From: Ascidiella aspersa
Lineage: Eukaryota
Assembly: GCA_963924565.1 (NCBI GenBank)
Contig: OZ004609.1
Span: 7,626,001 to 7,690,000 of the forward strand
DNA: 64,000 nt
Reading direction: 5' to 3'
Position numbers and translations under genes: made by a program. How positions within the stretch are numbered: position 1 is the first letter of the stretch; each line of letters begins with the position of its first letter. The notes under the pieces were generated by a model, which was not told where the DNA came from, ran no database searches, and was given only the letters and a program-made list of their open reading frames with translations. Below are positions 30,101-58,242 of this stretch, one piece after another.

Positions 30101-33100
30101 ATGCAGACGTTTATAGTTTTTTGTAAAGGATTTAGCCAAGAAACGTTTGAAACGAATGTTTATGTGTCGCGATGTTTGAATGTTTATGTGTGTTTTAGTA
30201 ACAAAACTGCATATTCAACACTTTCCTGTACACAGTTTGTCTAAGGCAGTTGTTACAATATCATTTAATTATAACATAACAATCTGCGTAACGTTTGACT
30301 GTCTTTTAAGTCACTGAGTTGAGAATCACTTCATTGGACTGTTCAATACTTTAGCAATAAAAAACCAAACGTGTAATTTCAAATAAATTACTAAATACCT
30401 TGAAATGTATGTAAAACTTAAAAATGGCTCTGGCTATACACAGCAAGGCAATCGGTAAAAAACCTTAAAATCGTTGTTTAAATATTAGTGTGAAGGCTTG
30501 CGTGCTTGCCGGCATATTTTTCATACGAATATTTTTTTTTCCAAACTCACAAATATTGCACTGCAAACTTAAAAATCTCTATAATTTTCCGCGGCACACA
30601 GTTTGAGAATCCCTGGCTTGAGGTTACATTTTTTGCGTACAGGCCTGACTTACCGAGGAGACGCCAATCAGACGTACAACAGAAGCTTCTGGAAGTGGAA
30701 TGACGACACCGTGACGTCATATCAGCCATGGGAGCCGGGAAACGAAGGGCCAACTGACACTCGGGGAGCAACACCCTGTGCGCTTGTCAGTGATTTCCAG
30801 TTCAAAAGTCGAAGCTGTGGTAGTTTGAGAGATCGGGCAGCAGCTTGCTACATTGAATCTGCACCTGCGCGAAGAGCCAACAACATTACTAGTAAACTTG
30901 TAACATTAATTGATATACGTTAAAATATAAATCATTATTAATTATACTCTTTAAAGATTAATAAATTGAGTTTAAAGTAACTTTTCACCAAACATCTGAC
31001 TTAGTGTTATCACATTAAAATCCTATTTTAGTGCATCCGGTTTAAGATCCTTATTTCTAGTTATTCCAATTCGAAATTCAGAACCTTGTGTTTGCAGCTT
31101 TAAACACTGACTTTTCAGCGATTTTAAGATCAAAACGTAGTTTTTGATTCTCAATCAAAATTGTAAGCCTAGTGTTTGCAGATCAAAACCCTGATTCGAT
31201 TGTGGAAAGAATTTGGAAAGCACAGGAAAGTTTGAGGAACAATGGTGTGAGTGCTAGCAAGTTGCTATCATTGGAAAGAAACCTCTCAAAGGTGATTGCC
31301 GAAAGTGGCAATATTTCGATTCACGAAACCATCGGAAAAGTCGTGGTCTATATCAACAGTTTTAATGCAACCGGGGATCGAGTCAAAACCAATTTAATTC
31401 GGCTTACCAATGTCACGTCCTTCAATTCAACGTTTGAGACTAAACACGGCTCTAATATGGAATTGGTGGCATTTGAGGTGAGTGTTTACAACCTTTCATC
31501 CAGCTTTCACAACGTTTCTTCAAGCAGTCTCAAGGGCCCGACAACTCATTTCGTGAGCCTTTCTCCGATGGTCTTTACCGGGGTTTCGAGCTACGACGCC
31601 GCAGGAGGCTCCGCACTAATTGGTTCCATCTCTCTTTCGAGGATCGTTGCACAAGACAAGGAAAGCGACCAGAGGATGTGTGAGAAAGTATGGAGTGAAG
31701 TCCCCAACAATTCCTCGACAGGATTAACAATAGATACGCTTCAACTCACATGTGTTTTCATCGACCAGTCATCTGGAACCTATTCCACTGCTGGTTGTCG
31801 CACTAGAGAGGACGGGGGGCAGGTCTTATGTGAATGTGATCACCACACAGTGTTTGCTGTTCTCCTCTCTGTAAACATGGTTTCTGTGACACAGGAGGTT
31901 AAGGTAAAGCATAATTATTGTTTGTTCAGATATTTTAACAACATGTAAAATTTTACCACTAACTAATCCGTTCCAGATCTTTTCTTACATTTGCGAATCT
32001 ATTTCGATTCTGTTCCTCACCGCCACCATCGTACTCCTGCGCATTCACAAACGCGCGATCAGCAGCGACCGTACTCTCATTCAGCTTAACGTCGCCATCG
32101 CCCTAACTTTGTTGCATTTAGCCAACCTAACTCATGATGCCGCTGCAAACGACAACACCATGTGTCTCATTCTAACGGCTGCCATTCAGTACTTCCTTCT
32201 TGCTACAGGTAATTTGAAAGCTAAAAACAAACCTACCTGCTTGCTTTATCAACAGCGTTCGACAAATGCTGTGTAGGTTATTTTAAGCAATTGTTTTAAG
32301 TAACTGGTATTTTTAAATAAATTTATCTATAAGAACAGCCAAACAATTTTTTAGCCATATATACCCTAATTAATGATAAAATAAAATACTTTTTTCGACA
32401 AGTTGACGTTGTTAAAGATCTTTTTGTAATCTTTAAAAGCCAACTTTAAACATTCACATAATATGCACAAACGAACAAAATTGTATTTAAGGTTTTTGGT
32501 TCATGTTCGATGGAATACGGATGGCGATGGCCTTGGCTTTTCCAATTCGTTTCCACACCAAAGACCCCGAGACGAGATCAAGAGTGTTCTTTGTGCTGGG
32601 ATGGTTCGTTCCAGCCGTGATAGTTGGCTCGGCGCTTTCCGTCGGTCTGCTGTATTCGGCAAACTACATGAAGCCCAGCACACACTACGAAAAATGTCAC
32701 CAATTTCAACAGGTATCCACTCATTGAAACAAGTGTTGATTTTTCACGTTTAAAATATCAAAACAGCAGGCCATATGGTCAATATAGATTTAAAGCAATT
32801 GTTTTTGCTAATGCATTGGGATATATAACCCAGTTGAGAGCATGGAAACAAGCTTGACTTTTCGGTTAGGTTTTTAAAAGGCTTAAGTAGTGTCCCTTTA
32901 TGTTTTTTAGAATATCCGCAAGTACGACAGATGCTGGTTGGCTCCCGGTACATTGGTGTACATTTTCTCGGTGACTGTCCCGCTCGGGATTGTTCTGGTG
33001 GTGAACTTCTTTGCATCTCTCATCGCAGCTTATGCAGCGCTCCCATTCAGGGGAAGGGAGGAGCGGAGACAAGGAGAAGAGATGGAAAATGCAAAGAAGT

Positions 33101-34254
33101 TCATTTTCTCCTTTGTCTTCGTGATGCTGGTTCTCGGAGCAAGCTGGGTTCTTGGATTTTTCTCAGGTTGAAGTGCATTTGCAGTTAAAGTAACAATTTC
33201 TCTATCTATAAATGTTTTTTCACACGGTAGAATACATTTTATTTTGCACGTTTGTATAAAGTGTTGTCACGTTTCTATAAAACAGGGGTTCCCAACCTTT
33301 TTAGGATCTCGTACCACGTGGACGCTCTGTAGTGTCACGCGTACCACACTAATTTGATCAAATCATATTTTGAGCTTACAACTAGCACTTTTCAACGCTA
33401 TTTGAGGCGTAAGATATAAAACAGTAGATTATACAGTAGATTAGTGCAATCATTTGACATAATTAAGCTCACGTTCCCATAGCGTTGTAGCCTACGCTTT
33501 ATACAGCAACTGTGCTCCTTGTCAACAATTGACATGGCTGTATTTTGAAGATTGCATTGTTTTGAAACAACAGGAATAGTTACGTAACAACAAGAATGGG
33601 CTTCGGGGGAAAATTTTTTTATGTAAACAAAAACAGATGAACAAAATATAAAGTTGTGAGTCCACGGTTTTGTGAAAAAAAACGAAGCTACTCGCGTCCC
33701 CTGAAAAACCTTCGCGTGCCACTAGTGGTACGCGTTAAAAAAATCTTTTCAAATTTTGTATAAAGAAATTCGACACAATTTGGTATAATAAAGCACGTTT
33801 GTTGAAAGTAAAGTTGATATGAGATGATAAAGATTTTCTACCAATTAAAATTACACTTTTTTATATATCATGTGAGTTGGCTCGTTTTGACAAACTATAT
33901 GGTTTAACGTTTGTGTGAATTTTTTACAAGGTTAATGATTGTGTGTATTTTCCTAAAATAAATTGCTCATATTAAAACGCTGATCATTTTAAATTTAATG
34001 CAACGTTTAAACAAACAGATATTTCTTGTTGCTGTGCAGGTCTTGGAAACGAAGTTACGTCACTTGTGATGATGTACATCCACACGACAGTCAACGGTCT
34101 GCAAGGAGTGGTGGTGTTCATCTTCTATTGCCTCCAGAACAGAACCATCGCAAACAGACTGGGATTCCCTCGAAAGCGACCAAAACCAACTTCGTCGACC
34201 TTCAATCTTCAAAACAGGGATTTTAGCGTGAGAACAAATATGTCTCGCTTTTAA
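27175..34254 (+). CDS. Adhesion GPCR with signal peptide, C-type lectin-like domain, GAIN/GPS and 7TM (~785 aa)
   Basis: Exons 27175-27241, 27305-27433, 28423-28512, 29496-29672, 30643-30891, 31182-31903, 31977-32208, 32492-32712, 32911-33166 and 34040-34254 are all GT-AG, phase-consistent and stop-free (2358 nt). Motifs: CTLD YC...FWLGL...WKWND....YQPWEPG...C...C...C; GPS CVF...STAGC...CECDHHTVFAVLL; secretin-like 7TM with QYFLLA, GWFVPA, CWL, LGASWVLG and NGLQGVVVFIFYCL. Exon 3 is the least certain. Confidence 0.88.
33283..33735. mobile_element. hAT-type MITE in the last GPCR intron (right end truncated)
   Basis: Left end CAGGGGTTCCCAACCTTTTT..CGTACCAC; subterminal palindrome CGCGTGCCACTAGTGGTACGCG at ~33713-33734. 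Confidence 0.55.
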
Positions 34255-35385: not shown

Positions 35386-35598
35386 TTAAATGATCACGCA
35401 GTCGGGCTGGTTCTTTTGGTTTTCTTCCTTTACGTTTTCAAACAGATTATCAAGTTGAGCGGTGCATCTTCCTTGGAATCTTTCCGGCGACGAATCGCAA
35501 TCTCGAAGTCTCGCTACGTATTCATTCGTGAGGGTCTTGAGCACTTCGCGATGTACCCCTTGCAAAATGTCTGGATCCACGTACTTGTTGTTGCAAAC
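35386..35598 (-). CDS. Alternative terminal exon 18b of the atlastin-like GTPase, ending in a CaaX box (CVII)
   Basis: Phase-0 acceptor tttaag| followed by VCNNKYVDPDILQGVH...RFQGRCTAQLDNLFENVKEENQKNQPDCVII*. It is clearly paralogous to exon 18a ([16 protein letters not shown]...[24 protein letters not shown]). Splicing 37803 to 35598 gives an ~872-aa isoform. Confidence 0.75.
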   Translation of the reverse strand, partial: VCNNKYVDPDILQGVHREVLKTLTNEYVARLRDCDSSPERFQGRCTAQLDNLFENVKEENQKNQPDCVII

Positions 35599-36397: not shown

Positions 36398-39300
36398 TTA
36401 GTCAAATAAGCTCACAACAGCATTGACACCAGTTTCAATACCAGATTTAATCGGTTTCACTACATATTTCTCGAAAGGTTGTGCAACATATTGATCCACG
36501 GTACTTGAAATGCGATACCAAAGGGTTCTGTTTTCCTCGTTTAGTTTCTTCACAGACTTGTACTCTTTGTTCAGCTCCGATTTGCATCTCTCCAAGAATG
36601 GTTCAAGAAGCTCCCTACTCTCCGATGCTGATTCGATTTGCCGTCTTCCGCGCGACTGAAGTCCATCATGTACATTTTGGAGGACTTCCTCCTCTACGTA
36701 ACGTCCATTGCATTGCTGTAGTTAAAGTTTAAACAAAATTTTAGGAGAAAAAATAATTCCTGTGTAATTTATTTACCTTACTATAAACAAGTCCGACATT
36801 AATCACTTTTGTAATAAGCGTTTACCTATTTTAATTATTTTTACTGTGTTCAAGGTTGGCTGTATTTTGCACTTACGTTCGAAAGAAATGGATTCTCCAT
36901 TCAGAACAGAAAATCATACATAACTATATGCTCTTGTGTTTAATACTGTTGTCTTTCCCTGATTGTACAAATTTTCACTTATTTTTGAACTAGTTTTCTT
37001 AAAGATTGCAGTTTTTTTAGATATCTCGATTCAGAATTGAGCGATGTGTTTATTTATATGTAACTAAATAGGTGAATATAAAGAACTTTAGATATAGGAT
37101 TGCAATGCAACTCACTGCTCCAACCACATAACTATGGGAAATACTCAACTATATGGTGGGCCAAAACTCGGCTTACAGTTATTAAACTTTTGTTAGGTAC
37201 CATTGAATGGCTACCACGCGGATAAAAACCCCAAACCAATAAATTTACTTTTAGACCCAAACCCTACTTTTTATAAGTGTAAGCCTACATTTGGGCCACT
37301 CTGTATACGCTATCTCGCGTTTTAAAGTATGCCCTCTTATCCATCTAGCATTTGGAAGGTCAAATTCGACAAGTTTAAGTATAGTTAAGTCCGACACCGA
37401 CTCCGCTGCTCTAATTGTGCTGAGGTTTTCAACACGTTAAGCACGACACATGCTACGAATAACCCCAACTGGCGCCTAGAGTTCGGGCATGAATTCAGCC
37501 ACCAGTAGACCACTTAACAGGGTTGCATACATCATTAATATACACAAACTATAACACTGCTTTAATATTTCTTACGCGCTTTGTATAAAATAGATTGAAA
37601 GTAGGTATATTCTATGCGTGATCTCCAGGAAACATTATCAGATATAAATCAATCAAAGCAATTTATAGGCTTTATACGGCCAGACGATTAGCTGCCAACG
37701 TATTAATTAAATTTTACTAAAAGATCTCTTGTAATAAGAATTATACACCGGACAATAAAACAAGTATCACTTGGCTAATATAACTTTAACAGATTGGCTT
37801 ACTTTTTCCATGGTCTTCATGTATTCCGCTTTTATGTCTTGCAACTCTCGTTCTGCATTTTCCTCACACGTTGCCTGCAATACAAGAAGATCTATTAAAT
37901 AAACAAACACGAGACGAGTGAAAACAATACTACTTTGAGGTATAAAAATCTGTGGACCTTATATAGCTAGTTCTAGGAGGGACTATTTAGCAAACGTTTT
38001 AACATTACGGCTAACTCCCAATAACTTGCAATTGGCATTCAACGATAAATAATTTTTATTATAATTAGGTAGTAACTTTTCTCATTGCTTTCCCATTATA
38101 AGGTTGAAATCTTTCCCTAATTTGAATTTTGGCGTATAAAATACCGCAGTGATTTGATTTACATTTTGAGGCAACGGTTTAAGGTCTGGCAAGCAAATTA
38201 AGAATTACAAAAGGCAGTTGAAGGTAAAAATGCTATATTTAACAAATTTGGACGCGAAAATAAATAACAAAAAACAACGATTGCCAAACTAAATAAACCT
38301 GTAAAAACACCAGGTTCAAACTCAATAGGTTGGGATAGAAGAACTTAATAAAGATTTTTATTGCTAAAAATCCTAAAAACGCCCAAACTTAAAGCAGTGG
38401 TTCCAAACGCCAAGAACACCAGCAACAGCAAGAGCATAAAATAACCATCCACAGTTCCAGCCCAAGGAATTTTACTCATTATTTTTTAGCTACCTTGTTT
38501 TGTTCGTTTCGCTCTTTGACTGAAACAAAATGCCCTTCAACGTCAGTCTCCAGCTTTCGACGAAACTCGTCAAAATATTTTTCAGGTTGCTTTTTGTCGA
38601 CGCGATCGTAATCGTGTAAAGCGTCGCTCTTCAGTAGCTGGTGTCTCTTGACCAACTTGGATTCTTCATGGTAAGTTTGGGAACTCTAAAATGTATTAAA
38701 ATTGTAAATCTTGGCGTAAATGTATTTCAACCTGCTCGCATGACAAACCGTAGCAGTTTTGACAGCTTCCAATAACCGAAAAGAGAATTTACATATTGCT
38801 TGATGAATTTAAAACCGATTCCGTAAATTTCACATCAATTGCACATTCTAAAACGGGATCTTAATCTGATTTTAATTTGTGACGCGGAACCTTTTGTAAA
38901 TTAATAAAAAATCATGTGTTTTCCTTTTACAATTGCATATGCAAGCAAGTGCGACTTGCATACTATCCATTAAAGAACTGGTAAAATTATGGTACTCATA
39001 TATTGCTTTGATGTCTAGGGAGTGTGACTGTCAACCTATTAATGAAAAGAGTGTGAAAAATGCGTTTTTTTTAATGGAACATCAGCAGAAAAATTACCAC
39101 TTAATTCTATCGACAGTAATTTCACCTCCTCGATTCGCCGTTGATAATGAAGGTAGGCTTCACGTTTTGCTTTTTCGAAGTCATTCCGAGCCCTTTCCTA
39201 GAAGATGAAAATGTAATCAGATATTTAAAATAAATTTAATGCATTTTCGTGCAAAGCGTTCAAGCAAAATTTGTTCTTTACTATGGGAAAATTGGCATTA

Positions 39301-42300
39301 AAATTGCTCGCTGATGGTCGTATTCATCAATCGGACCAGACTCAACAAATAGCAACGGTCCAGCTATTAATAAAACAATTTTTAAAACTAATCAACCAAA
39401 TGAAAATTAGCAGTTAAAATAACATAACAATGAGCGTCAATAAACGAATATACAAAATCTGAATATAAAAATCTCGTGGTAATTTTATTCACTACCAAAA
39501 ATATAAATACATATTTAGAAGACGCTTAATTCATCACTGTCCTTGTACAACAAATCAAAAGAAAAACTATTTATTTATGACACAATATTTCTTTCCATAC
39601 CCACCCCACGAGTGTCGTTCCGTCGTTTTATCTTGTCGAACTCGTTGTCGAGAAATTCGTCGAGCTGAGAGCGACATTGCTGTGCGAAATCTTTGCCTCT
39701 GTCCTCTTCTACAGACGCGATGATTGCTCGCGCTTTGCTCTTGCTCTCGGCATGTGCGTGCTTGAGTGTGGATTCTTCTGTGTAGCCAATACTGCAAACC
39801 TGGGTAAGAGGACAAGAGCGTGCTGTGTGGTTTATATTGACGTGGTTTATGCTGAGATGCTGTATCGGTGGAGGGTATAGGACATCAGCACAAATAAAAA
39901 GACACATAGGACCTGAGAAACAACACAGGCCGGCTGAACATGGCTTATCAAGTGATTTAGCAAGACCTGCAGCTCATGTTCCATAAAACGCATTTAATTT
40001 AGATTATTTGATCAAAAAAATTACACAAGGCATTCAAACCTATTTTTAGTTTTTCACCTTGTCAAATGAGATCATTTATACCTTTCTTTTGAAAGGAACG
40101 ACACTTTATGTGCATGTCAGATACCCTCTTTTCTTTCTGCTATAAACACATTTAATTACTCATGGGCTCAAATATAAAAATTGCCTGCTCCTGCTGCAGA
40201 AAGTAGCAATGATAACCTTTGAACACCATTTATTGGTAGTCCTGTTTGTAGAAATTTCTAAATGTATGGATATGCATTACCTGAAGGAATGGTTCTCAGC
40301 GATTAAAAGTGTACTTAAAAGAGTTTCAGTAATTATTTTGTCCGTAATAGTTAGCTAATACCTCATCTTTACTAAAAGTGCAAAGAAATCCGTTAGAAGA
40401 ATGGTACGGCATAAAAACAAAATTTTGCCTATACAAATCTAAATCTAAAACATGTTAAACGGCATAACATTTTGCTTTAGCCTTTAAATTGACAATACGT
40501 GGCGCTAGACTTAATGGACGCAGAAATTTAACACGTTTAATTTATATTTAAAAAAAAACTATAATATTAAATGTACAAAACACTTGGAAATTACTTACCT
40601 CATCCATCAAAGATGTATAGAGAGCCTTTGCTTGATTCATGATCTCAATGGTCTTGGATTCCGCTAGTTTCTGGAAAATATACGGTTTCTTTACCACGTC
40701 GTATGATTTCTTTGTACAGATTAATTTCTATCAAAAATTAACCGTCAAAAGTAGGCACAGTAGACAAAGAGTGCTTGTACGCTGTAAGAAGATAATAAGA
40801 TTGTGCTTGAAAACAATTTTTTATATTTTAATTAGAATTTATAATCCCTTATTTAGTTGGAGATTTTCGTAAATAAGATATACGAAAAAATAGGCCTAAG
40901 TCACTGAGATGTAGAGTTACTTTATAAATGATAAAATAAAAACGTTGAGTGATTGCAGGGTAGTTGTTCACTGGGATACGTTATACAAAAACAAACTTAG
41001 GATTTAATATCGCTATATGTAAATGTTGTGAGGGGTTAACATTTTTTTTAATTTTCTGCTTGGGGTTAATAGGGGTAATGGTAGGAGTTAGAAATTTAGT
41101 TGGGGTTAGTGTTTTAGGGGTGAGATTCGGGTTAGATAAAATGTATTGGCCTGATTCTTACCATTCAGGTCTTATTCCTAAGGATTGATTTATACGGTAA
41201 TTCGACTATTACGTATTAGTCCTATTTTGATCTTATTCCGAACTGTGTTTTATTCGAATGTTAATGTTGTTCTTATTTAGGTCTTATTGTTGGAGTCATG
41301 ACGAATATGCGGTGCAACAAATATCACTTGCTTTATTGATGTCGTTGGTTTGCTTCATCTTTCGTCTTTCCTCTGCGATCTTCTTCAGGAGGCGTTCTTT
41401 CTCTTCCGTCCGCTGAGGGGTTCCTCTTCCGACAGGTGAAGTTTTGAATATGTTTAGTGCGCTCTTCTGTGAAGAGTCGTGTGCCGCTTTGAAGTCGCTA
41501 TCCTCCAGGAAAACGTCGCTGCATTTCTGGGATAAACACATTGGTAACACGTCTATTTTCTATATGTTCAATGGGAAGAGGGTTAAAGGCAAAGAATGCC
41601 GTGCATTAATATATAAAAACCAAACATAGCAGTAATGTAAGAAAACAAAATCCAAAAACACGATACGTAACATTGGCGTTTTTTCCCTCAGCCTTGCATC
41701 AGGGAGTCGAACCTTTTGACTTTTTCGGTTCGGGTTCAAGGATTTTTTTGGAATCCGGTTCAGTTCCGGTTCAGCTCCGGTTCAAAGTTGTGACGTCATA
41801 CAGGAGCGAACCGCTCTAATTTACAGGTTCGGGTTCGGTACTTCCAAATTATTCGGTTCAGTTCCGGTTCGGTTCCTTAAAATCTTATAAAAACCGGTTC
41901 ATAAAGTTCCGTTACGGTTCGGAATAAGTTGACCCAAAACCGGTTCATAAAGTTCCGGTTCGGTTCCGGTTCGACTCCCTGCCTTGCATAGAGTATACAT
42001 AGGGCTATCTTTACGGATACGTGACATTTTATTCGGTTACCGACATCCGATATTTTGGTCAAAAAGGATCGCGATCCTATCCAAACCAATGACGTCATTC
42101 CTATGCTCGAACAACCATACTGGTTTAAATTGCAACGTTCCATGGTAACTTTGTCCAATTTATAAGGTCATATTTGGACTTAAAATTAACAAGTTCAGTT
42201 CGTTTAACCCACTATTTTTTTAATAAATGTACATTTTAAAGTAGAAATCGCTAAGATATATCGTAAATCGTTAACGAAATTCCTATAATAGTTTGGTGTC

Positions 42301-45300
42301 TGGTAAACTCAATGAAATCCCGTTCCAGAAGGGTGCGAACAAACGCAGCTTCCCTTAACAGCAGCTTATTCTAACTTTGCACGTTTTTAAAGCTTTGTAA
42401 CTTTTATTCGACAAAACAAGCACAAGTAAACCAGCAATAACTCACCTGTTCCATTCCCTTAATGTAAGCATCGATTGACTTCAGCGTTTCGCTTTCCAAC
42501 CGACGTCGCATTTCCTCCTGTACAAACATAACATAAGTAGTTCTGAACAAACTTCGTTATTGATGTTCTCTAGGGAGCGTATGTAGGAAACGGAAGACTT
42601 TTATGGTCACCAGGAGAGGGGCCTAACAAAGGATGTTACTCATAATTTTAGATAACATTTAGTACACTGATTAAAATAAAAACACTAATGGCAGTGTACC
42701 AAGTTTTCTTCAAATTTGTAAAGACAAACTTTACCCCTTCGTTACTTTGATTCGAGTTTTAGCATTCGGAAAATGTGCTGGATTTTATGGATAGATCTAC
42801 GAACTCAAAGACTGTGGTTTTAAATAAACAGTAGATGAAGCCGTTTTAAATAAAAAGGTAAAACGAGAGAACCTTTACAGACTATAGTGGAAACAAAAAT
42901 TGGCGTCATCTAAAAAGACGAAACTAGCTGCAGTTCAAACGGAATTCCCCGTTTACGTAGCTGGCTTTGCCTCTACAGTAAAACCGTTTCACAAGAAGCT
43001 TTTAGTGACGTCAAGTTCAAAACTAATGCCTCGACCATGGGGATTTCCACGTTGCGAAATATATGTCTTTAAATCTCCTTTTTCAAGGCAATGCTTTGAA
43101 ATGTGTGAATTTTATACGAAAAACGAAAAGCGACACGTTACTTTAAAACATCACGTTGCTGTCAAAATAAAAAAAACGCGCAAACTATTCCCGATGTTAT
43201 ATTTTATATACGCATTATCAAGCTTTTAAAAGCATTTCAGAATTTTTTCCAATGCCGCTACCACTCCAATTTTTTAATTTCAAATTTGAATAAAAAAACA
43301 TTACGAAGCAGTCACGGGCAAACAACAAAGCTATATACGTAAACGTTCCAATGCAATGTGACTAGAAATCGCTTGAATAGTTAACCCCCGCGAAAACAAC
43401 AACGAAGGGAATTCCCCTTTAAGTAGGCCACTCTTTGGCTCTTCACTAAGTAAACTCACTTCACATTGCAGAAAGCTTTGAGTTACGTCAATGGCGAAAC
43501 TAATTGACCTAGCACGCGTTTTTCCTATTGCGAATGGCACGGATTTTCTGGTTATTTTTCAAAAAAAAATAATTCCTCGAAATCTGTGACGAAATTTTAT
43601 ACGACATGTTTAAATTATTAAGTTGCTCGTAAAACTTTGAAATGTCACCTTTCTGGTTAAACAAAAAATGCTTGAAATATCCCGTATGTTATATTTTATA
43701 TAGGCATTATCAAACTTTTTAACGCAGTTCCGAAACATTTTTTTCCAATGCCGCTACCACACCAATTTTTAAATTACAAATTTGAAAAACATTGCGAAAA
43801 CATGGGCAAACAACAAATTCAGTCAAACATGGGCAAACAACAAATTTAAAGGCAAACGTTCGATTTCTCTGTGACTATAGAAATCGCTTGTTATCCATAA
43901 CTGCCGAAGCAACAATGTATCGCACGCGACAAAGAGGACAGACATTGCTTAGCAGATCGTAGATCAGGTCGTTTCAACGCTATTACAAGGCATGTCGGAA
44001 AGCCGCTGAAGTACCTGTCTGTGTTTGCTTAAACGAAACCCGTTACCCGACGCTGGTGATTCCCCATCTGAAAGCGCGTGAACTCCTGCCTCATAAGTTC
44101 GACCAGCTTGTTTCTGTATTGCTCCGTAAACTCCTGCGGGCAATCTTTGGTGTTTTGCTCGTACAAGTCGAATGCTTCTTGCCGGCTCTTGTCGTTCGCT
44201 TTGAGCAAACTCTCGTTGTTCAAGACCTCGCCTTTAGCAACCTAGCAGCGCCCGAATTGACAAATTTATTGAGGTTTACGCTACTGAGCACAACATAAAA
44301 GTGGTGAATGTTTGACAATTAGCAATGTTTTAAAATGGCAATCAGCACTAACTTACAATCTGCAAATAACTTTGCCATGACAGTGTGGCGATGTAAACGT
44401 ATTCTTACATCTCGCTGTATAACAAGTGTACTTTGCCTATATGCAAGTATGAAAACATATTTCGTATATGTGGCTTACATTTTGAAGGCTGGATGAATAT
44501 TTCTCTTCGGCCTGCGCAACAAAATCGCGAACGCGGTTCTTCAAACGTTCCTGAAAGAAAATATAAATTTATGAAAGGGGTCAACAAACCTTTCTCATAG
44601 AGGGTCAAATAACTTGACTGACTGGCGCCAAATAAAACAAATTGGAGATCACGGGCCGCTTGTAAATCTTTACATTTACCTTAGACGTATAGTTATTATC
44701 AAAGAAGAAAAGATAAAAAAATATTAAAATGTGTACACTTATGAAGTTGTTGTTTAGTTTAAAGTTTAATTTAAATTTAGCTTAATTTTGCATCGATACT
44801 CATTTCCGGATTATTTGGAAAATATGACGCGGGCCAGAAGATAAAGCAGCGCACCTGGTTTATGCGAATAGTCATAAATGTCCAGCGACACCAGCTGTTT
44901 TTATATGTTATGTCAAATTTAATTGATTTTTGTTTTGCTAGAGTGAAATCGTCACAACCGACAAATGAATTAGAATACAGCTTCGCATAACGGTATAGTA
45001 TAAACTCCATTTCGGAACTCCATTTAGTCAGTTGGCTAAATCAGAAAAGCAAATGATTGCGAATTACCATCTGTGCGATGTTAGTTTGCTCGTGGGTGGC
45101 AAACTCCTGCTTGATCATTTCGACTAACTTCTTTCTGTATTCGGCAATGAACGAGTCATTACCAAGTTTGGGAACAACGTCAAACTGCTGCAAAGCAATT
45201 GCCTGACCGGTTTCGTGTTTTTCCCGGAGAACTTTCAACTGCACAAAGCCGAACTCGTCGAAAAGCTGAAGCGACAAAAAATATCACTTGTTTAAACCAC

Positions 45301-48300
45301 ATTAAACATGGACACAAAAATGCATTTTAGTACTTTAACTTTGTAAAATAATTGCTAGTTTTACAGACCTTAGTCATTTGGTTGGAGTAAGCTTCCTTGC
45401 ATTGCTGAAGGATGGGTATCATTGCTGCCTTTGCACTTGCCTATACAAACAGAGAATAGTTGGTACTATACCCTGCTAAAAACTGTTATAGCTGTATAAT
45501 GCAATGTTGAAATCCGAATAGTTGGATTATCTTAGTTATAAAGGGAATGGAAACTATTAACTTCTGTTCACATTAATTAATTAATTCAGTATCATATGCG
45601 GAATACTAAGTGAATAAATTACGGTACTTCCGATTCGCCAACAAAAGTCGCAAAACACCTGGTTCAATTTGCTTTTGACGCTTGTAGCGCTCAAATTAGG
45701 AAAATTCGAGGCTTTGTAGCGTCTGTGTTAAAACACGTTTTAGAAATTTTACGGTTCAAGCGAACTGTGTTAGAACTGGATAAAAGTAAACAGCGAATGC
45801 GCAGACTAATCAAGCTTCGGTATGAAAGATGATAGCCAGGAACCGCATTATTCACCAAACATGTATGGTAAATACATTTACTAAAACGAGAAATAAAGCC
45901 ATTCTCAAAGTAGTTTTACTTATGTTGAATTAACAATGCTTTAGCAACAATAAAAGTCTAACCTGCTATTAACGGGGTTAAATTATAAACATTTATAATG
46001 TACAAAACTGTAAGAGAACAAATCCGTAGTCTGCATCGCTTGGCAACGTTTCGTTATGGATGATTAGTCTGCCCATTCGCTGTTCACCTGACTTGAGCGC
46101 TACAAGCGTTGAAAACAGTCAAAATAGATTATTTAGGCTAGACAAACCAACTATTGAAGCTGGACAAAATGTGACTGAAGTCCAAACTTTATTTAGAACA
46201 ATGTTATTATAGGCACGAGTTAACCTAAGTATAAGAAAAACCTAGCCAAAATATTTATGCGACTATATTCTCGAGAATGATTAGCAAAAAAACCTGCAAA
46301 ATTGTCCCGACGTCTGGCATTTTCCCACTTCGAAACACCTCGAAGTAAGCCAGCATAAAGTTGATGAGAGCTTGCCCTGTTACGATGTTGCCGTTAACCC
46401 TCTTGATGACGACATTGTGAGGCGAAAACAAATGCTGAACGAGCTCTTCCAAATGGTCGAGAAAGTCCAATTCCACTTCTGCATAATAAATAATATTATT
46501 AAACGCTTAAAAAAGTATATGACGTTGTGTCTTTAAAAAATCACTGTTCGACACAGGAATTCTAAATCGGGATATTTGACAGAAATTGTATGATATGTTG
46601 AAATGCTCGATATCAGTTTATCGACAACAATTCGATTGCTCCAGACTTAGTTTCAACTTTTCTTAGCCGATATACCGCTGACTTTGGGGCGATTTACCAA
46701 TGGAGGCCATTTTTAACTTGCAGATTACCTGCCAGACAAATAGAGCTTCCCTGTTTCTGTCCTCTGACAGCCACCTTCCTTCCAGGATGAGGCATCAGAA
46801 AGCAGGACACGTCGTCGTAAGAATCCTTCACGTTTTTTCGGACGGACTCCAAGTCTTTGTGCTTCGTCTTTACGGCCAATAAATCTTCCAAGACCTGTCG
46901 ACCGCCTCCTATACCAAGCTCGAAATCAGGGTCCTGCCAATCTCGCACCAGAAACAGCAGATTCTAAAATGTTTCGCACTCTATATTTAGGATGTATAAC
47001 GTCGTAAACTCTAAGCGTTGCTTGTTTAGGTCGCAAAATACACAATGTGGACACCATAGGTAAATGTGAATAGCATTTGATCTATTGCAACAGTCGGAAG
47101 GGTAAAATTTGTGTGTCGAAATATTAGAATTCGGGCATTTTTAACAACTGTCTCTAATATATGGTAAACTTTGAAAGCTCTAGAAACGGTCAACTATAGC
47201 GAAAAATTATTTAATAACCTACCTGAAAAGGTTTTCCGTTCAGCCTGCTAGATTTGTGGGCCGCTTTGCCGTAGTCCGTGAACAACTGGCAAATAATTGC
47301 GAAATAGTTTCAGACTAAAATATTTCAATTGTGTTAATTTCATTTATTCCTATACTTGCAAATGCTGGAGGGCGTCTTCCTGTATCTGCTGCATGACATT
47401 GTAGATTTGCACGGAACTTATCATCGTGCTTAAAGCAAATATGACGGAACAGCCTTTGACCGAAGTAGAACTGTCAAAGGCTCCCTGCGTGTCCATCAGA
47501 AACACGGCGACCTGTAATAAGGATTGTTTGGTAAGTCAGGTTGAAAAATGTTGAGAGGCAGATTACATATAGCGGCTCGATTGTCTGTAGTCCATTTATT
47601 GACTAAAATGCGATTTGCGTTACATTGTATCCTAATAAACTATATATGCATTATGTAGAAACTGTTTCTTCCAAACTCACGACCAAAACTGGTGAAATTT
47701 TGTATAGGTTCTCCTCTCTGTTAACAGTTTTGCCCAGTTTTAAGTTACTTTGATTGATAAAAAATCCATTCAGCCCTAGAATGTTGTTGTTTCATACAAG
47801 ACGCAATACAGCACTGAACAGTCAGTAGCGCAAAGAAAGCACTATAGCCAAAATTTTAGGATTCTCTTTAAATCGTTATTCGGCAAATATGAGGTTTCCA
47901 ATCAATTGCATTATGATCGAAATTATATTGCTGAAAATGCTCGTTATGTTTCTATTATGGATATATGCAGGACTCATATGCTAAAATATTACCTCTCCAG
48001 CTGGTGTATTGACAAAGAACGGTTCGTTCCACAGCCAGACTCCTTGCGTATGCCTGTCCTTGCCGCCTCTCCAACCGAAACCTTCACGAAGCTGCTCGTC
48101 TTTGTTGGCAAGCCACGACTTAGACTAAAATACAATTTAAAACTGAATATGGTCGAGTTTAATCCTGATAAGGAAAGAAGCCAATTTATTCAGCAAATCC
48201 GCAACTGAAAGCAAATGTGAAAAAAACACTATTGTAAATACACGCATCGTTCTTTGCCAGTAAAACCTATTTTTTGTGATGTTAACAGCAGATTGGATTA

Positions 48301-49133
48301 TTGATTGTTGAGGCCTTGATTACTTCATGCTAATTCATCGTCAAATAGTAAACACACTACTACACGGTACCGTAAAATCTATTACTGGGTGTATACGGAA
48401 AGGAACGCCTTGTTTACTCCTTGCTAATAAACCGCCGAATAGTGAACACACTACTGCAAAGAACTAAAATCCCACATAAATTGGTGTATATAGCAATTCC
48501 CAAACTGTGTGCCGCGGCACACTAGTGTGCCTCGAGAGATTGCCAAGTGTGCCACGAAACTTTTTTGTAATTTCGGAAAATAGAATATTTGTATTACCGA
48601 TAGACATACACGCAAGCATTTTAGACTTAAATACGCCATACCCCTAAAAAATTTATTGTATTGCAACATACATATATTTTGTTGTGTGTTAAGGGCGATT
48701 GTAAAGTTACTCTGTTGTTATTCTGTTAAAAGTGTTCCGCAAAATATTTCAGATAATTTTAGTGTGCAGCGAACCAAAAAAGTGTTTGGGAACCACTGGT
48801 GATACGAAAAGGTACGATCACGGTAAAAATGCTTGGTTTTTATCCGAACTTGAACTTGCAAATGAACCATCCGTAATCATGATCAATCCCCGGAAGCCAA
48901 CTTACCTTTCCTTGCTTCTGCGACCACAAGTAGCGAAGAAACAAGTTGAGCATGAAGGATTTCCCTTTGCGGAACGCACCAGCCAACGAATACACGGCAA
49001 CCGGAACGTCAGCGACCTGACCGAACACCCGCTCAAGTTCCACTGAGTCGATTTCGAACGAACCCGAGTCATTTGGTCGAACAATCTGGACGGCCTTGTA
49101 AGTTCCAATGTCCTTGCGTTCTGCGTAAAGCAT
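36398..49133 (-). CDS. Atlastin-like (GB1/RHD3 family) large GTPase with six tandem three-helix-bundle repeats and no TM hairpin (~907 aa)
   Basis: Exons 49133-48906, 48124-47993, 47511-47356, 47285-47223, 46963-46729, 46478-46294, 45440-45369, 45265-45068, 44550-44479, 44241-44047, 42517-42446, 41526-41332, 40670-40599, 39799-39605, 39197-39126, 38685-38494, 37874-37803 and 36715-36398 are phase-consistent and stop-free, with one GC donor at 41331. G1 GAFRKGKS, G2 [12 protein letters not shown]3 DTQG, G4 VRDW and FLMPHPG are atlastin signatures. Confidence 0.9.
41700..41981. mobile_element. hAT-type MITE in GTPase intron 11
   Basis: 14-bp TIR CAGGGAGTCGAACC / GGTTCGACTCCCTG, perfect 8-bp TSD CCTTGCAT, and internal (CGGTTC)-type repeats. 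Confidence 0.9.
43175..43890. repeat. Diverged ~200-bp direct duplication in GTPase intron 10
   Basis: ...tgttatattttatata.gcattatcaa...ttccaatgccgctaccac.ccaattttt...gggcaaacaacaaa occurs at ~43190 and ~43685. Confidence 0.7.
48491..48798. mobile_element. hAT-type MITE in GTPase intron 1
   Basis: TTCCCAAACTGTGTGCCGCGGCACACTAGTGTGCC at the left and TTTGGGAACCACTG at the right. Related ends occur at ~30590-30615 and ~54882. Confidence 0.7.
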
Positions 49134-49788
49134 TTTATTCTATGCTTTGTCTTCATTAATATTATATACACTTCAAAATAAGAATAATACGGACTCAACA
49201 AAACGCACCGCCTTTTTCAAATTCGCGTTATGTGAAAGAGTTTATGCTAAAGTTCAGGTCATAAGCACGACCTATTCGATGACAACTGTTCTAATACAAG
49301 AATGATAGAGCTAACGTTTCACTCTTTACTTACGGTTGTCAGTCATTCCATATCCGTGTTCATTTAAAATGTCTCCTGATCGATCATCACTTCGAGGCAT
49401 ATAAGACATGGTTTTAGCCAACAAACTTATATTTATAAAGAGAACTAACTATAAGGCTCTGACTGTCTTTAATCGAGTTTAATGTGCTTAAAACGAATAT
49501 TCCTGCTTGTTTTTATATACACCGCTGAAACGACATTAATAGTGAGCTTCAGAGCTTGTTATTGACAACAACAGCTACGCCGCGATTTTCGAACTAATTT
49601 GTAAAAGTCTAAGCGTACCAGGCTTACACTTGTGACTCAAACTAATGTTCTGCTTCTTGCTCGATGCGTTACGCCGCTTAAATAACACAGCATCGCACAG
49701 CGCTTGCAAGGCAGACAGAGAGTACACAGTTTTGTCGTTTTATGTGTTCAATACGGCCATGACCTTTTCTCTCCACTCGCCAGACACG

Positions 49789-50655: not shown

Positions 50656-51754
50656 TCTTGAACAACTAACTAGACTTTGCCTAAAGCAAACGAAAAAAGC
50701 CGCAAAGTCGCGTTCGACTTCTAAGCGCTAAACACCGAGGATTCCCCGCAGGAGTTTGTGGAGCAATAAAGAAACAAGCTCGTCGAACTCATGAGGCAGG
50801 AGTTCAAGCGGTTTCAGACGGGGAATCACCACAGACGGGAAACTGGTTTGGTGGTACATAGAAAATACAAAACAAAGACAACTATTGCTCTCTGTCTGGC
50901 GATACGTTGCCGCTGTTATAAATTACAAGCAATTTGTAGATTCCGTTAAATCCAAAGTTAGCGCCTTTTTGCTTACACAAGTATGTTAACCTGCTCTACA
51001 CATCAGTTTTTTTGTTCAATCAGAATGCAAACTTCTAAATTGTCGGGAAAGCGGCTTTAGGTAACCCATACTGCTTGAAAAGTTTATAAATGCGTAATAT
51101 AATAGGTTCGAGTGTTTTTTATGCAGATTTTGTTTTATCCCTTTGTTTACTTTCGAAATAACGTGTCGTGTTGTGTGTACAATTCTGCCAAAAAATTCAG
51201 ATGTCCGATTAGCATGAATATAAAGTTCGTACCATTCGGAATTTGGGAAGTTGGGTTTTAACCTTAACTTAGCTTACATCGGTCTGAAATGAGTCTGCCG
51301 TTTAAAACGGCGAAGTCGCTTACATATTGGGGATTTCCCTTCGAGCTGCTAGAAGTTTCCACTCTTTCCCTGAGTCGATAACTGTGCCTTGTGAATTATT
51401 TTGTTTAAATAATCTCCCCCTATGTTTATTTTGGACAACAACAGAAACATTGGCTAAATCAAAATAAAACGATTTTCAGAATGCTAAAAATCAAATGCAA
51501 TTTAGGTTTAGGTATTGCTTTCCTTTGCCTATGCGAACAAAACTTAGTACAATGCAATTTAATGTTTGTGGTTTAGGCGTTTATAAGCTTCCCAGGTCTT
51601 AGCCTGTTGGCTGTAAAGTGTTTTGTGTCTTTACAAGCCCTCGCGAGATTCAAAAAAATTGGCTTGATGTTATGTTCGTACCGAAGGAAATGTGACGTCG
51701 GTTGAAAAGCGAAACGCTGACGTCAATCAATGCTCAAGTGACGAAAATGAACAG
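50656..51754 (+). pseudogene. Inverted, decayed copy of GTPase exon 10 - intron - exon 11
   Basis: ~50656-50839 matches exon 10 (..[30 protein letters not shown], with stops and a lost donor). ~51684-51754 matches exon 11 (..EM*RRLKSETLTSINA..EQ|gt, acceptor mutated). The intervening sequence has patchy similarity to intron 10. Confidence 0.85.
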
Positions 51755-54024
51755 GTAACAGTTGCATTGCGTGTGATTCTGCTGTTCAGCCATAACCAAA
51801 TCCTGTCAAAAACGTGGATCGGAGACGTCACGCCTTTGCTATACAGATAGAAGCTTTCAATTTACTACAGAATTTTTTTATCTAAATTTACTCAATAAAT
51901 TTGAGAAACTGACAAAGATATAATCTCTGAAATACATATTAATTTATGTTTTCAGGAATAATTGAGTTTGTTGAATGTGTGTTGACCAAATTGGCACCTT
52001 TCAGGGATGTTTTTGATTGAAAAATTGAGGGTACTTTCCGATTTGCTCGTGCTTTGCTGTGAACAAATATCACATCCTTTTCTCTGTTATACCATCGTCT
52101 ATCAAAAGTTACTTAGAAAGTACGATTATTATATGACAGAATGTTTGTGCGGTTATTTACGCCGACAAGACGGGAATTTGTTAACATTCCTTGCCAATAG
52201 ATTAGGCAGAATGAATTTCTGTCTAGCGGAAATCGTATGCGCCCTCAGGCGAAAAGTAAGTTAGTTTTACTTTATCCTCGCACGTTTATTCAAAATTTAT
52301 TTTTTACGTTGCCAGGATTTAGTGCCTTTATAACATATGGTTTGTTACATGGCATATATTTTACCTATTACAAGCTTCAAAAAGAATATTTGCATTCCCT
52401 GCTTGAATATATAAGCTTGCAAACATGTCTCGTACTATTTTCACCAAACCCAGAACCAGGCTTGTTTTTATTATAGTTTTTTAATTTATCTTGGTAACAT
52501 TTTTTCTAAACTTTAGTTTGAGGCGATAGTGCGCTTGCAAAGCATATTTTAGCATATTAAACAACTAAAAACAACGGCTTACGAAATAGAAGCAGAATAT
52601 TGTTTGACCTATTTAACAACATTATTTGTCAGTCCCACAATAAAAATAGGTAAAGTTTATTCCTAAATTGGATTTAGAAATATGTTATACTAATTAAAAT
52701 AACCATCAATATGTTTTCATCAAAGTTAATTAGTTTTCCTCATTCGTACACTTTCTTGCCTGGCGAAATCTAGGATATTTTTTTTGTATTGAATACGTCC
52801 AAAGTATATATGCTGCACTAGCGAAAACTGATATATATAGGCATAAAATGCAAAAACACTGCCAACATTGATAAATGTAAAATTTGTTCGAACGAAATTT
52901 GTTTTAAGTTTGCCAAATTAAAAACAAAATAAACGTTAAACATCACCAGTAGACCAAGCAAAACCAAACTCAAGTCTATAACTTTGTTTATGATTTTGAC
53001 TTTAGCAAATCAGTTTTGTTCATTATGGTGTAGGACTCTAGGGCATATTAAATAATATATTGCCGAAAACTAAGTGTACTGTTAACTTGTCTTGTTTATT
53101 TCATACAAAAGGTCGCCGAGTAGAGGGAAGCGAAGAGACTATAGAGAAAGTGGGTCTGGCCTTGACGAGAGACAGGGCCGTTTCTCTCGAAGAGACTAGG
53201 ACAAATATATAATTATGCAATTTCACGTAAAGAAGGCGCGCTTGAAATATAACAAGAAGGTGATCGACATAAACATAGCTACAAAGTCACTACATGGCAT
53301 CATTGTATTTTTGTTAAATTTAACAGTCCAATCTCTACAAAATAAATGCAACATAAAATGATTTTAATATTACGAAAAATTCCTATTGTTGTTAGTAAAT
53401 ACATAAATCACGTCAGCTGTCCTATATAGTAGGCTAGTATTAGCACTGCGGTTCTGCTCTCTCGCGTATTAATTGTTGTATTTTTATGCATATTTAACTA
53501 CTTTTCAACTTCAAAATTTTGAAATTAAAAAACCTTATGCAACACCAAAAAAAGTTCAACGAATTTAAATTTACTTTGTGGCATGGCCTAGTAATCTCAA
53601 GCAATCGCAATTTTCACTTATTTTACTGATTTTAGTCTTTGTTGTGGTAAGAATAACATTGATATTAGGCAGAAAGTCACAAACAACCAATACGTACACA
53701 TCTACAAATTTATTTTTATGTTAACTCACGATTCTATTGTTTAAAAAAAAAATATGTTTATTTTTCCCCATTTAGCCATCGTCTTATTGAGTACCAATAT
53801 AACTCAAAACAATCATTAAAATTTATTAAGTCAGATGGCATTTTTAGACCCATTGTTGAAAGCAAATAAGCTTTTAAAGAACACCACATTATGTTCTGTA
53901 AACAAGCTTTTAAAAAAAAACTATCTCGTAATGGAACATTGCCCCAAAATATGATTTCCAAAAAATCACCCATGGCAAATAACCACTTACACAATTTTAA
54001 ACAATCTCAACTCTAGGTCTAGTA

Positions 54025-54305: not shown

Positions 54306-56202
54306 GGCCTTTGCTTGGGGGGTAAAAACCTGAAATATTGCGTTTTAGCACTTTGTAGCTAACGACAGCCATATAGCAGCAGAAAAACTTTCATACAGAA
54401 TTCGTTCATATTCGCTTGCTTTGTCCAGCTTGTGAAGTGACGAAGCGACTTACCGCCTGCTGGGCTTTATTGTCCCGCGCGTGAGACTTTCATTGTGCGA
54501 AGTGGCACGTCCTAAACTGGGCTCGTGCGACTTGCATTTTAAAACGAGGCTTCTCTTTAGTAAAATTACTTAATGCTGTTAAGAAACAACTTATTTTACC
54601 GCCGCAAATTTAAATGCAAAATCTGGTGGCAACTCTAATCCAACATATCAACACCAGGCCTACACAACTTAAAATTGCAAATTTAATAGTTTTCCCCCCA
54701 AATACCTGGCTACGCCTCTGACACTGGTCAATATTAACCATTTATTTGCGTTCTCCAATCTGCACTAACTTAAACAAAATAACATTTGCCAAAAACATCT
54801 GCACACCGTCTGCGAATTTTCGTTCTACCATTTGTTTTTCGCCAATGACCAAACCTGCTTTTTTATGTCTTAGCGTTACATCAGTGGTTCTCAAACTTTT
54901 TCAGCTTGCAGAACACTAAAAAAATCTTGAATAATTCGCGGCACACTTTAACAGAACAACAATATAGTAATTTGACAAATGGCCTTAAGACGCGACAAAC
55001 TATAATATGTAAATGTATCAATATTATTTATTTGTTAAGCATTTTTAAGTCAAAATGATTGCGTGTATGCCTATTGATAAATCTTTTGGAGTTTGGAGCA
55101 TGTTGATGTAAAGAAACCTTCGATATTGCAGAGCGACCTTGATATGCCTTGTCACCAAACAACATGTGTGTTGGAATCATAGTGTATACTACGCAAAAAG
55201 TGGGTTCAGGGCTAAAGTGGTTGCTTTAACCAAGTTAAGCGTAACTTTGAAGTGTGAAACGGCAATACAAAGCATTAGCATTTATTATGATTTTCACGAC
55301 TCTATTAAACCTTTAAAGAGATATTAATTATGTTGGTCATTAATGTTGAAGTTTGGAATAAACAATTAAGTGTTAACCATCAATAATTACAGACAACGCA
55401 ATGGAATCATAGTGCATTTTAGACTTTGCCTTCTGCTTCCACTGTCTTCAAAATTAAATTTTGCCGAAATAGAATTTTATCCCCAATCGCCAATTTTATC
55501 ACAAGTACTGGGGCCTTTGCTTGGGGGGAAAAAACCTGAAATATTGCGTTTTAGCTCTTTGTAGATAACGACTGCCATCTAGCAGCAGAAAAACTTTCAT
55601 ACAGAATTCGTTCATATTCGCTTGCTTTGTCCAGCTTGTGAAGTGACGAAGCTACTCACCGCCTGCTGCGCTTTATTGTCCCGCGCGTGAGACTTTCATT
55701 GTGCGAAGTGGCAGGTCCAAAACTGGGCTCGTGCGACTTGCATTTTAAAACGAGGCTTCTCTTTAGTAAAATTACTTAATGGTGTTAAGAAACAACTTAT
55801 TTTACCGCCGCAAATTTAAATGCGAAATCTGGTGGCAACTCCAATCCAACATATCAACACCAGGCCTGCACAACTTAAAATTGTGTATAAACTGTTGCTA
55901 CCAGGCATGGTAATGTAAATCAAAAAACAGCTCCTCTGGTAAGTGTAATTGTTAACCAACGTTTAACGTTCAATAATAGCACGAGAATCAGACTACAGGA
56001 AAAGATTATTTTTGGAATCGTGGAATATTTATAAGAAGGGTAACACCATGAACGTCAAAACTGACGTGATGCTTTCTGCATGCTACAAGCACCTGCTGAA
56101 CGCCTAGAGGCAGTCGCTAATTATTTTCTTATCGTTTTGTTGCTCGCGTTTATTTCTGCTTTTTTTCCTTTCCATTTATTGTACGAGCGTTCAGTGTCAA
56201 TC

Positions 56203-56243
56203 ACCCTGACGAAGGCGGCTTGTATAGGTTGCCGAAACGTTGG
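56203..56243 (+). ncRNA. Minimal type I hammerhead ribozyme (Penelope pLTR type), copy 1
   Basis: ACC-CTGACGA-A-GGCGGCTT(GTAT)AGGTTGCC-GAAAC-GTT-GGT: canonical core, 8-bp stem II with G-U pairs, palindromic AACGTT stem III and stem I ACC/GGT. Confidence 0.7.
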
Positions 56244-58242
56244 TTAACAATTACACTTACCAGAGGAGCTGTATTTTTATTTATATTAAAATTGTGTGTT
56301 GATATGTTGGATTGGAGTAACATACTGTACAGGTGCAAATAGCAAATATTCTCCAAATACGATTTTTTCAAATTGTATTTCATCGTATTGTCGCGGTTAT
56401 ACAAAAAGAGGTAAGGCCGTGAATAAAGTTTCACCCACCGTACAATTAAAGCAGGGAAGCATTTCGAGTAGGGATGTTCAAGGCAGAATATCGGCGACAC
56501 ATTTATAATGAAAAGCTTCGCCTAATAATCAAGTGACAATAGGGTGTATTTACCGCCGCAAATTTAAATGCGAAATCTTAAGGCAGTGTACGCCTCTCTG
56601 ATAGCACCTGTTGTGCATGTTGCTCCAACCAACATACCAATATCAGGCCTAAACATCTAGCAAAACTTTCGATTTAATAGTTTGCGTATTGAGAACATAA
56701 TAGTTTTTTTCATATTGTTTAAAACTACAGATTTAAAGCCTGTTTTAACAGCGATTGCTCGGCCCAAGCCATGGTAAAAAATTACCGAGTAAAAGTTTAC
56801 AAAAGTATAGCAAACCATAGGCGTTCCATTTTTAGTCTTTAAGAGAATGATAATATTTGCTTTTCAAACACGTAATCTGGTAAAAATTTAATAAAATGAC
56901 CATACGCATTATCTACGTAAATTCTATTTATCAAATATATGTTTCGATCATTCCCCAAATTCTACGCCATATTTGAACCCCTTTCGCATCAAAGGCAAAT
57001 TTTAAGTGGGGACGTTTTCGGCCCATATCTGTTTTTGCTTGCAGAAACAAGTTTAGGAAAATGAAAAACAAAATATATAATATAAAGTACACAATACAAA
57101 ATATAAAAAAAAAAAATTAAACAAAAAAAAATTAAAATAAAGTAAAAATTGAAAATAAACACTAAGCCCTGAAAATATATTCCCTGACAAAATATGCAAC
57201 AACCGCACCCCCGTCTAGTTTTTTCTGTTTTTTGTTACGTTTCGGGCCTATTTTTTTAAGGATTTTAGAGAAATAAAAACGTAAAAACTTGAAGCTTTTA
57301 GATATGACGTAGAGTGGTAAAAAGATGTTAATTTAAAGATTTAGACATTGAAGACTATAAGGATTATTTCCAATTGATAAGTGTTTATTAAGCAGCAAAT
57401 TATTACTATTTCCTTTCCGCGCCCCATTTTTTTAGAATGCTACGGGTTATACGGATTATGTACTTTATGGTATAATTGAGTAAGAAACAACATATATAAC
57501 TAGAAGGGGTTGCGGTTGTTTATTTTGTCGATGGGTATTTTTCAGGGCCCTATTTTTAATGTTGGTTTGTCAATTGGTTGGGTCATTAAAAATGTAGTTG
57601 GGTATAGTTGGGTCAATAAATATATATTTATTTACCAGGTTATTTCTTGTAATATTATATATTACACTTTGGTTTGTTGGTTGTGAGGTATATATTGAGT
57701 TGTACTTTACCTTGACTTATTTCTGCAAACAAAAACAGATATGGGCCGAAAAATTCCTGCCTTCTCCTGACCTAAAGTGATGCAAAGGGGAAAGTTAGCC
57801 AACTAATACTTTTTCTGTTTTTTTTTTGTTGTAAAAAATATGTAAAAAGTATTTTTTAGTGGAGAAAGAGTTAGAGTTAGGATGAAGAGTAACAGGAAAA
57901 CGGTTGATGCATCAAATTGTGCCCGCATATTAGGGCTGGCAAATATAAAGCTCGTCTTTCACAGAACATTTTTTCATTTCATTCTCTGCCAGAGCAAAAC
58001 AAAATATACCGAGGGTCGAGCGAGACGAAAATATATCCCTCGACAAGCCCATCTCAAATGTCCTATTCTTCGTTGTTACGGTAAAGTTCACGTTCGGCTG
58101 TGCTCGGCTGCTGCCTTATTCACACATGGCGTCATCTAAATAACGTCTGGCTGATTTAACGCAACACATAAACCTCACCCATTCAATTATAACGCCAACG
58201 GAACAGGTCGGGTTCTGGTTGAATGCCGCACTATAACCCAGG

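Follow-up and report, generated by a model that had tools for sequence, protein, structure and literature searches.

An atlastin-type GTPase gene of the ascidian Ascidiella aspersa with a six-module stalk predicted to form chained three-helix bundles

Results

Exon architecture of the locus

The window, a stretch of 64,000 nucleotides from Ascidiella aspersa (assembly GCA_963924565.1, contig OZ004609.1, positions 7,626,001 to 7,690,000), contains on its minus strand a gene in which seven exons encoding a GB1/RHD3 GTPase domain, with the atlastin-type G1, G3 and RD motifs intact, are followed by a run of stalk exons comprised of six short exons of 72 bp, five long exons of 192-198 bp and a terminal exon. 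Every stalk junction is phase 0 and all stalk exons are free of stop codons. An earlier note on this DNA had described short exons of exactly 72 bp six times and long exons of 198, 195, 195, 195 and 192 bp plus a terminal one, stop-free and joined in phase 0. All six short-exon coordinates, the long-exon sizes, the phases and the open frames were borne out on the minus strand; the list was exact for the exons it named but overlooked a second terminal exon (35598-35386). A scan of the region with one splice-site filter recovered six open candidates of 72 nt against a shuffle mean of 0.47 (maximum 4, 200 shuffles), and five open candidates of 192-198 nt against a shuffle mean of 0.055 (maximum 1, 200 shuffles). 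The product spliced to terminal exon A is 928 residues long and ends in a moderately amphipathic, non-transmembrane tail, and an AATAAA lies past this exon at 36183. The features of the gene are listed below in the numbering of the window.

46294..49409, minus strand: GTPase domain, atlastin-type, seven exons (Pfam GBP N-terminal domain; two flanking or internal joints seen)
49409-49334, 49120-48906, 48124-47993 and 47511-47356, minus strand: GTPase exons 1-4
47285-47223, 46963-46729 and 46478-46294, minus strand: GTPase exons 5-7
45068..45440, minus strand: module 1, the ancestral atlastin bundle (45440-45369, 72 bp, and 45265-45068, 198 bp)
44047..44550, minus strand: module 2 (44550-44479, 72 bp, and 44241-44047, 195 bp)
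42518..44046, minus strand: intron between modules 2 and 3, with gene-strand RNA at the depth of an exon
41332..42517, minus strand: module 3 (42517-42446, 72 bp, and 41526-41332, 195 bp, GC donor)
39605..40670, minus strand: module 4 (40670-40599, 72 bp, and 39799-39605, 195 bp)
38494..39197, minus strand: module 5 (39197-39126, 72 bp, and 38685-38494, 192 bp)
37803..37874, minus strand: short exon of module 6 (37874-37803, 72 bp)
36398..36715, minus strand: terminal exon A (major), the long part of module 6 plus the tail (joint 36715/37803, depth 102)
35386..35598, minus strand: terminal exon B (alternative, minor), a duplicate of the module 6 long exon with a CaaX-like CVII end (z 9.1 to exon A)
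50656..51756, plus strand: decayed inverted duplicate of one long exon (module 2; 50656-50852) and one short exon (module 3; 51667-51756)

The inverted pair lies approximately 1.2 kb upstream of the start codon, is 81-84% identical to its source exons and contains in-frame stops, which shows that units in the order long plus short are copied as well.

Homology and predicted fold of the modules

The modules are strongly diverged, with 12-24 identical residues of approximately 90 per pair, and nevertheless related in 21 of 21 pairwise comparisons (z 2.6-10 against shuffles). The ratio of nonsynonymous to synonymous substitution rates (dN/dS) relative to the neighbouring paralog was 0.13-0.33 in all six, a sign of purifying selection that supports the duplications under selection proposed by the earlier note. 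A profile built from 65 long exons of positions other than the first matched the bundles of atlastin-3 and atlastin-1 in the PDB (E 4e-9 to 4e-5) and Sey1p (E 8e-5), with GBP5 reaching only E 0.61. The first 72-bp exon aligned gapless on helix 1 of the canonical atlastin bundle and the long exon on helices 2-3. The profile match, the helix 1 alignment, the dN/dS values and the module tree described below support growth of the stalk by exon-pair duplication, as the note had also inferred. The note expected canonical atlastin genes to carry the same 72-bp exon; the genome's own atlastin is intronless and offered no test. Exon 11 of human ATL1 is 72 bp. In human ATL1, too, helix 1 of the bundle is separated by an intron from the helices that follow, as Tyr367 belongs to exon 11 and Arg403 to exon 12 (PMC11377504). 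Single long exons gave no Pfam match above the cut-off (0 of 7) and a word-index search with one long exon gave no match; the same type of search with the stalk of a relative from Clavelina returned only two proteins.

An AlphaFold model was obtained for this six-module Clavelina relative, a stand-in for the window protein, with 34 sequences as input; an alignment designated A2, in which exon fragments were piled on module 1, was rejected for folding. The model (predicted local distance difference test score, pLDDT, 80.3) contains long helices shared between modules at residues 335-390, 425-480, 517-572 and 696-749. Residues 1-363 matched ATL1 (Z 32.6, root mean square deviation 2.4, 343 aligned), and residues 1-454, comprising the head and modules 1-2, spanned residues 47-483 of GBP1 (Z 21.8, root mean square deviation 19.9, 400 aligned). 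In the model, the last helix of a module (helix 3) and the first helix of its successor are predicted to form a single continuous helix of approximately 55 residues, such that each exon pair is predicted to encode one atlastin three-helix bundle segment of a spectrin-like rod. A 72-bp exon encoding a loop-free stretch of a continuous helix, the register of which tolerates almost no insertions or deletions, would explain the fixed size of the short exons, and the two loops carried by the long exon would explain its variable length.

Splicing of the stalk and alternative ends

Two RNA runs were used, X3 in the form of spliced contigs and X4 as raw reads with a depth of only 2-3; reads from a 97.7% identical copy of the gene on the same contig are indistinguishable from those of the window. 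Between GTPase exon 7 and the terminal exon there are 12 consecutive junctions; all of them were present in X3 contigs and 7 also in X4. The joints 46963/47223 and 45439/46293 of the GTPase region were present in RNA, and the joint 40670/41332 (CT..GC), which reveals a GC-AG intron at the module 3 donor, was found in both runs. The exon pairs appear to be constitutively spliced into a six-segment stalk.

The earlier note had proposed that one gene produces isoforms of one to six bundles by skipping exon pairs, a molecular ruler tuned by splicing. All modules are indeed skippable in frame, as every junction is phase 0; since any single phase 0-0 exon is equally skippable, the phase pattern is no argument for pairs. 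The uneven X3 junction depth along the gene (52-233) a pair of beetle database isoforms differing by a single 68-residue repeat and a Ciona pair differing by one 24-residue exon would also fit such a ruler, and a two-bundle product could arise by intron read-through. No pair-skipping joint was present among the best 15 of 19 RNA joints, 12 of which were consecutive and three repeat-derived, although minor skip isoforms could be missed by low-depth short reads and by contigs from which rare variants are lost. Ten database isoform pairs were compared, and the six from ascidians differed at the N-terminus, by four residues, in the last exon (Ciona and Styela) or by exactly the one 24-residue exon of the Ciona pair, with an internal exon-pair difference in none of the six. 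Furthermore, the fixed order of modules 1-6 across ascidians and the position-specific module classes described below suggest packing specific to each neighbour. The splice-tuned ruler is therefore considered improbable, and the length variation, which is real, is located between paralogs and at the 3' end of the gene.

The intron that follows module 2 (42518-44046) had an X3 contig depth of 52.8, level with the spliced joint (52.5) and above the 2-8 of six pieces of other introns, and a depth of approximately 2 on the gene strand in X4. Reading past module 2 adds five residues and a stop codon, and the product would be a predicted 538-residue protein of the head plus two bundles or a target for decay. 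The end of the intron contig at 42616 was considered as a poly(A) site and dropped, as the DNA-like runs X1 and X2 break there too. No canonical poly(A) signal was found near 42616; with these breaks, intron retention and intronic termination are indistinguishable. Splicing to terminal exon B would yield a protein of 893 residues. The CVII or CVIT end is kept in four of four local copies of exon B, and a distant paralog likewise has two tandem terminal exons.

GTPase head and membrane attachment

Approximately 30 residues precede the GTPase fold. A PDB search with GTPase exon 6 returned atlastins only (E ~1e-14), the head plus first module was 41% identical to the canonical atlastin of the genome, and the Clavelina relative scored 250 bits to atlastin versus 56-67 to GBPs. 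No transmembrane segment was found in the spliced protein, for which the highest 19-residue hydropathy values were 0.85 and 0.59 compared with 2.34 for canonical atlastin. The tail encoded by exon A has a moment of 0.48. A likeness of this tail to the atlastin tail seen by eye was dropped, as its alignment to four of four atlastin tails was no better than to shuffles, and a PDB search with it returned no atlastin match.

The canonical transmembrane atlastin of the genome (L059:4084-5682) is a single intronless open reading frame of 532 residues with a transmembrane hairpin. It probably arose by retroposition, and the expanded family consists of the copies with introns. In the C6 clusters the P-loop is altered in many paralogs (of 45 motif hits, 10 read GMLRRGKS and 17 GAFRKGKS), which suggests diverged GTPase properties.

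The gene family and its length series

Of 56 candidates scored against one GTPase exon across the genome, 45 were matches, and most of these lie in tandem clusters. Long exons counted automatically at 46 anchors numbered 1 to 18, mostly 2-7; some counts are lower bounds set by limited fetch windows, two (12 and 18) are too high owing to orphan fragments, and some others include an exon of a neighbour. Hand-checked loci included one with 12 intact pairs and one with 17 long and 16 short exons, while the intronless canonical atlastin, with one bundle, marks the low end of the series. Five genes checked by hand have 46 short exons, 42 of 72 bp and four of 75 bp, and internal long exons of 186-198 bp. 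An automatic pick over all loci, which was seeded with 72-bp exons and omitted weaker picks, gave 72 bp for 100 of 119 short exons.

The module-versus-module tree that the earlier note had called for was built with 50 modules from the five genes plus canonical atlastin. The modules grouped by position into six starred classes, revealing both pair and block duplications, with few columns and long branches that do not settle the order of the classes. The canonical atlastin bundle was placed with class 1, less strongly supported (90/78). The order of classes along the 12-module paralog is 1,2x4,3,4,5x4,6, and the paralog with 17 long exons has an extra diverged 3-4-5-5-5 block (74-92% DNA identity). 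The paralogs thus differ in stalk length through duplication of pairs and blocks in the genome.

The differences could instead be neutral by-products of unequal crossing-over, with only the six-module form of consequence. Decayed family fragments and broken copies are indeed frequent in the same cluster, and in the 17-exon paralog the short exon of one module is mostly gone. Against this, the 12-module paralog has 12 intact pairs, among which the additional copies of classes 2 and 5 have diverged considerably and still remain open, and other ascidians as well as arthropods have multi-module relatives that vary in length. The explanation is given little credence.

Two further observations concern the family. 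A whole-gene copy 97.7% identical to the window gene (G000 C3:7754147-7768169) is either a paralog or a second haplotype, and a second partial copy of modules 5-6 with both terminal exons lies beside it (G000 C3:7748944-7752247). In the C6 cluster at 11.5-11.65 Mb, a bundle-like long exon was found upstream of the GTPase exons (L097:2310-2513 and L085:1803-2000, both minus strand), perhaps an N-terminal module.

Relatives in other animals

The relatives nearest in the tree are the Clavelina proteins XP_076818141/2 (51% identity), which have a GBP N-terminal head and six modules with best class scores that follow the order 1-6, although in one of the two module 3 scores slightly higher with class 6. 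The conservation of this order indicates that the six-module form is old. Ciona XP_078494352/3, Phallusia CAB3224314 and Styela XP_039260676 also have a GBP N-terminal head and multiple modules; database names of the ascidian relatives are limited to GBP7-like, atlastin-like and uncharacterized, and the literature searched yielded no study of these proteins. The module profile found 155 representative proteins, the named ones from ascidians, an ostracod, a barnacle, insects and a nematode. A scan of 39 of them identified 28 with a GBP N-terminal domain, three more with only GBP_C and several unrelated coiled-coil proteins. The barnacle and midge relatives end in CaaX-like CTIL/CQIL, and moth proteins of 768-790 residues match the profile in 3-4 stretches. 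In a quick tree the arthropod forms were placed nearer to canonical atlastin than the ascidian forms, suggesting that long stalks may be independent in the two groups. Proteins from the ostracod and others (P0006, P0046, P0065 and P0004) have modules fused to DnaJ or Macro domains, or tandem GTPase-plus-stalk units. No description of a repeated-bundle atlastin or of the ascidian expansion was found in the literature searched, which consisted mostly of listings and the openings of abstracts and did not extend to subscription papers.

Other features of the window

Positions 54677-63044 are a 99.9% identical tandem duplication with a period of approximately 3.8 kb and inverted flanking repeats of 374 bp, either recent or an artefact of assembly. 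A tandem array of approximately 79-bp units with strong GC skew occupies 12066-13365. A convergent neighbour gene on the plus strand (~31000-34200) shows by eye a cysteine-rich motif followed by hydrophobic segments, and in this resembles an adhesion G-protein-coupled receptor.

Discussion

The results point to an atlastin-type GTPase with a constitutive stalk of six predicted bundles, the length of which differs mainly between paralogs, that probably works in the manner of a membrane-coating GBP. In the mechanism suggested by family knowledge, GTP would drive dimerisation of the heads, a C-terminal amphipathic or prenyl anchor would attach the protein to the membrane, and the rod would space head from membrane in assemblies on the membrane surface. 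The choice of terminal exon may exchange an amphipathic for a prenylated tail, and read-through after module 2 may give a head-plus-two-bundle form or an unproductive transcript. The clustered birth-and-death expansion, the CaaX-like end and the antiviral activity of the silkworm protein BmAtlastin-n suggest, by analogy, a role in cell-autonomous defence. Each module would contribute approximately 4 nm, and a rod of six approximately 25 nm.

Several results weigh against this reading. The stalk length is a calculation from helix rise and not a measurement, and in the Clavelina model (predicted template modelling score 0.48, module 5 pLDDT 42-69) the relative orientations of the parts are uncertain. 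No GBP-type alpha12-13 effector domain, which in GBPs folds back on the head, was seen: the C-terminal part consists of further modules, and GBP alignments end by model residue 549 with the rest barely covered. For exon B, the junction was absent from the best 15 of 19 RNA joints, the X3 depth of 5-9 is at the level of other introns with none in X4, and the dN/dS values (0.14, 0.52 and 0.99) derive from too few changes to settle selection. The CaaX end occurs in only four terminal exons of the module-tree set, all recent copies of one exon, and the C-termini of the Clavelina relatives and of the C1 paralog are hydrophobic and rich in glycine. The stalk dN/dS is 0.24 overall, with no sign of an arms race in the comparison with the neighbouring paralog.

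An alternative is a housekeeping function in traffic, in which the protein acts as a long-range membrane tether or remodeller with a stalk like that of Sey1p or mitofusin, peripheral via its tail and not immune. The head is of atlastin type with intact motifs, the six-module form is old, conserved and under purifying selection, and Sey1p matches the module profile. However, the protein has no transmembrane hairpin, an intact canonical atlastin is present in the genome, and a housekeeping fusogen would not usually have a family of 45 loci that shows turnover and decayed members. Such a role is considered unlikely, if less so than splice tuning or neutral drift, and the GBP-like reading is preferred.

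A broader and doubtful extension is that an ascidian atlastin was converted to a GBP-like defence family with rods of 2 to 16 bundles (approximately 8 to 70 nm) in steps of approximately 4 nm set by exon-pair number. The prenyl-versus-amphipathic exon switch and the two-bundle form would add further variants, each fitting microbial coats or membrane gaps of a particular thickness. The contribution of this locus is a series of stalk lengths inside one genome, module classes tied to position, alternative terminal exons and RNA evidence against common pair-skipping. With stalks of 1 to approximately 16 bundles on one type of dynamin-superfamily GTPase, the family is a natural length series for tests of reach, tethering and coat formation. 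Whether invertebrate atlastins took over the defence functions of GBPs is posed as an open question in a review (PMC9005921), for which the 45-locus ascidian expansion is a direct test case.

Among known systems, canonical atlastins (ATL1-3 and the Drosophila protein; PDB 6b9e, 3q5e, 5vgr and 3x1d) share with the window protein the GTPase domain, the G1, G3 and RD motifs and the first three-helix bundle. Unlike these, the window protein has six bundles rather than one and no transmembrane hairpin, and its gene has alternative terminal exons and belongs to a 45-locus family. RNF112/neurolastin differs in having an N-terminal cysteine-rich RING and C-terminal transmembrane segments, both absent from the window protein. 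BmAtlastin-n (770 residues, no transmembrane segment, antiviral; PMC4926086) is, by its description, similar in its atlastin head, long helical middle and lack of a transmembrane segment; the middle is described only as coiled-coil. GBP1, GBP2 and GBP5 resemble the window protein in the large GTPase head, the soluble nature, the CaaX-like end of one predicted isoform and tandem gene clusters (PMC9005921). In the model of the Clavelina relative the likeness extends to chained bundles with a shared helix, the GBP middle domain spanning modules 1-2, and a two-bundle middle domain could arise from a one-bundle atlastin by duplication of two phase-0 exons. The length of open, extended GBP1, given as 27-28 nm (270-280 Å) and central to current coat models (PMC12091997; bioRxiv 10.64898/2026.10.29.762752), is similar to the approximately 25 nm calculated for the six-module rod. 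In contrast to GBPs, the head is atlastin-type by sequence and reach would come from repeated bundles, not from an opening arm. The protein is neither a canonical atlastin nor a GBP by descent, and is instead a variant that probably works like a GBP.

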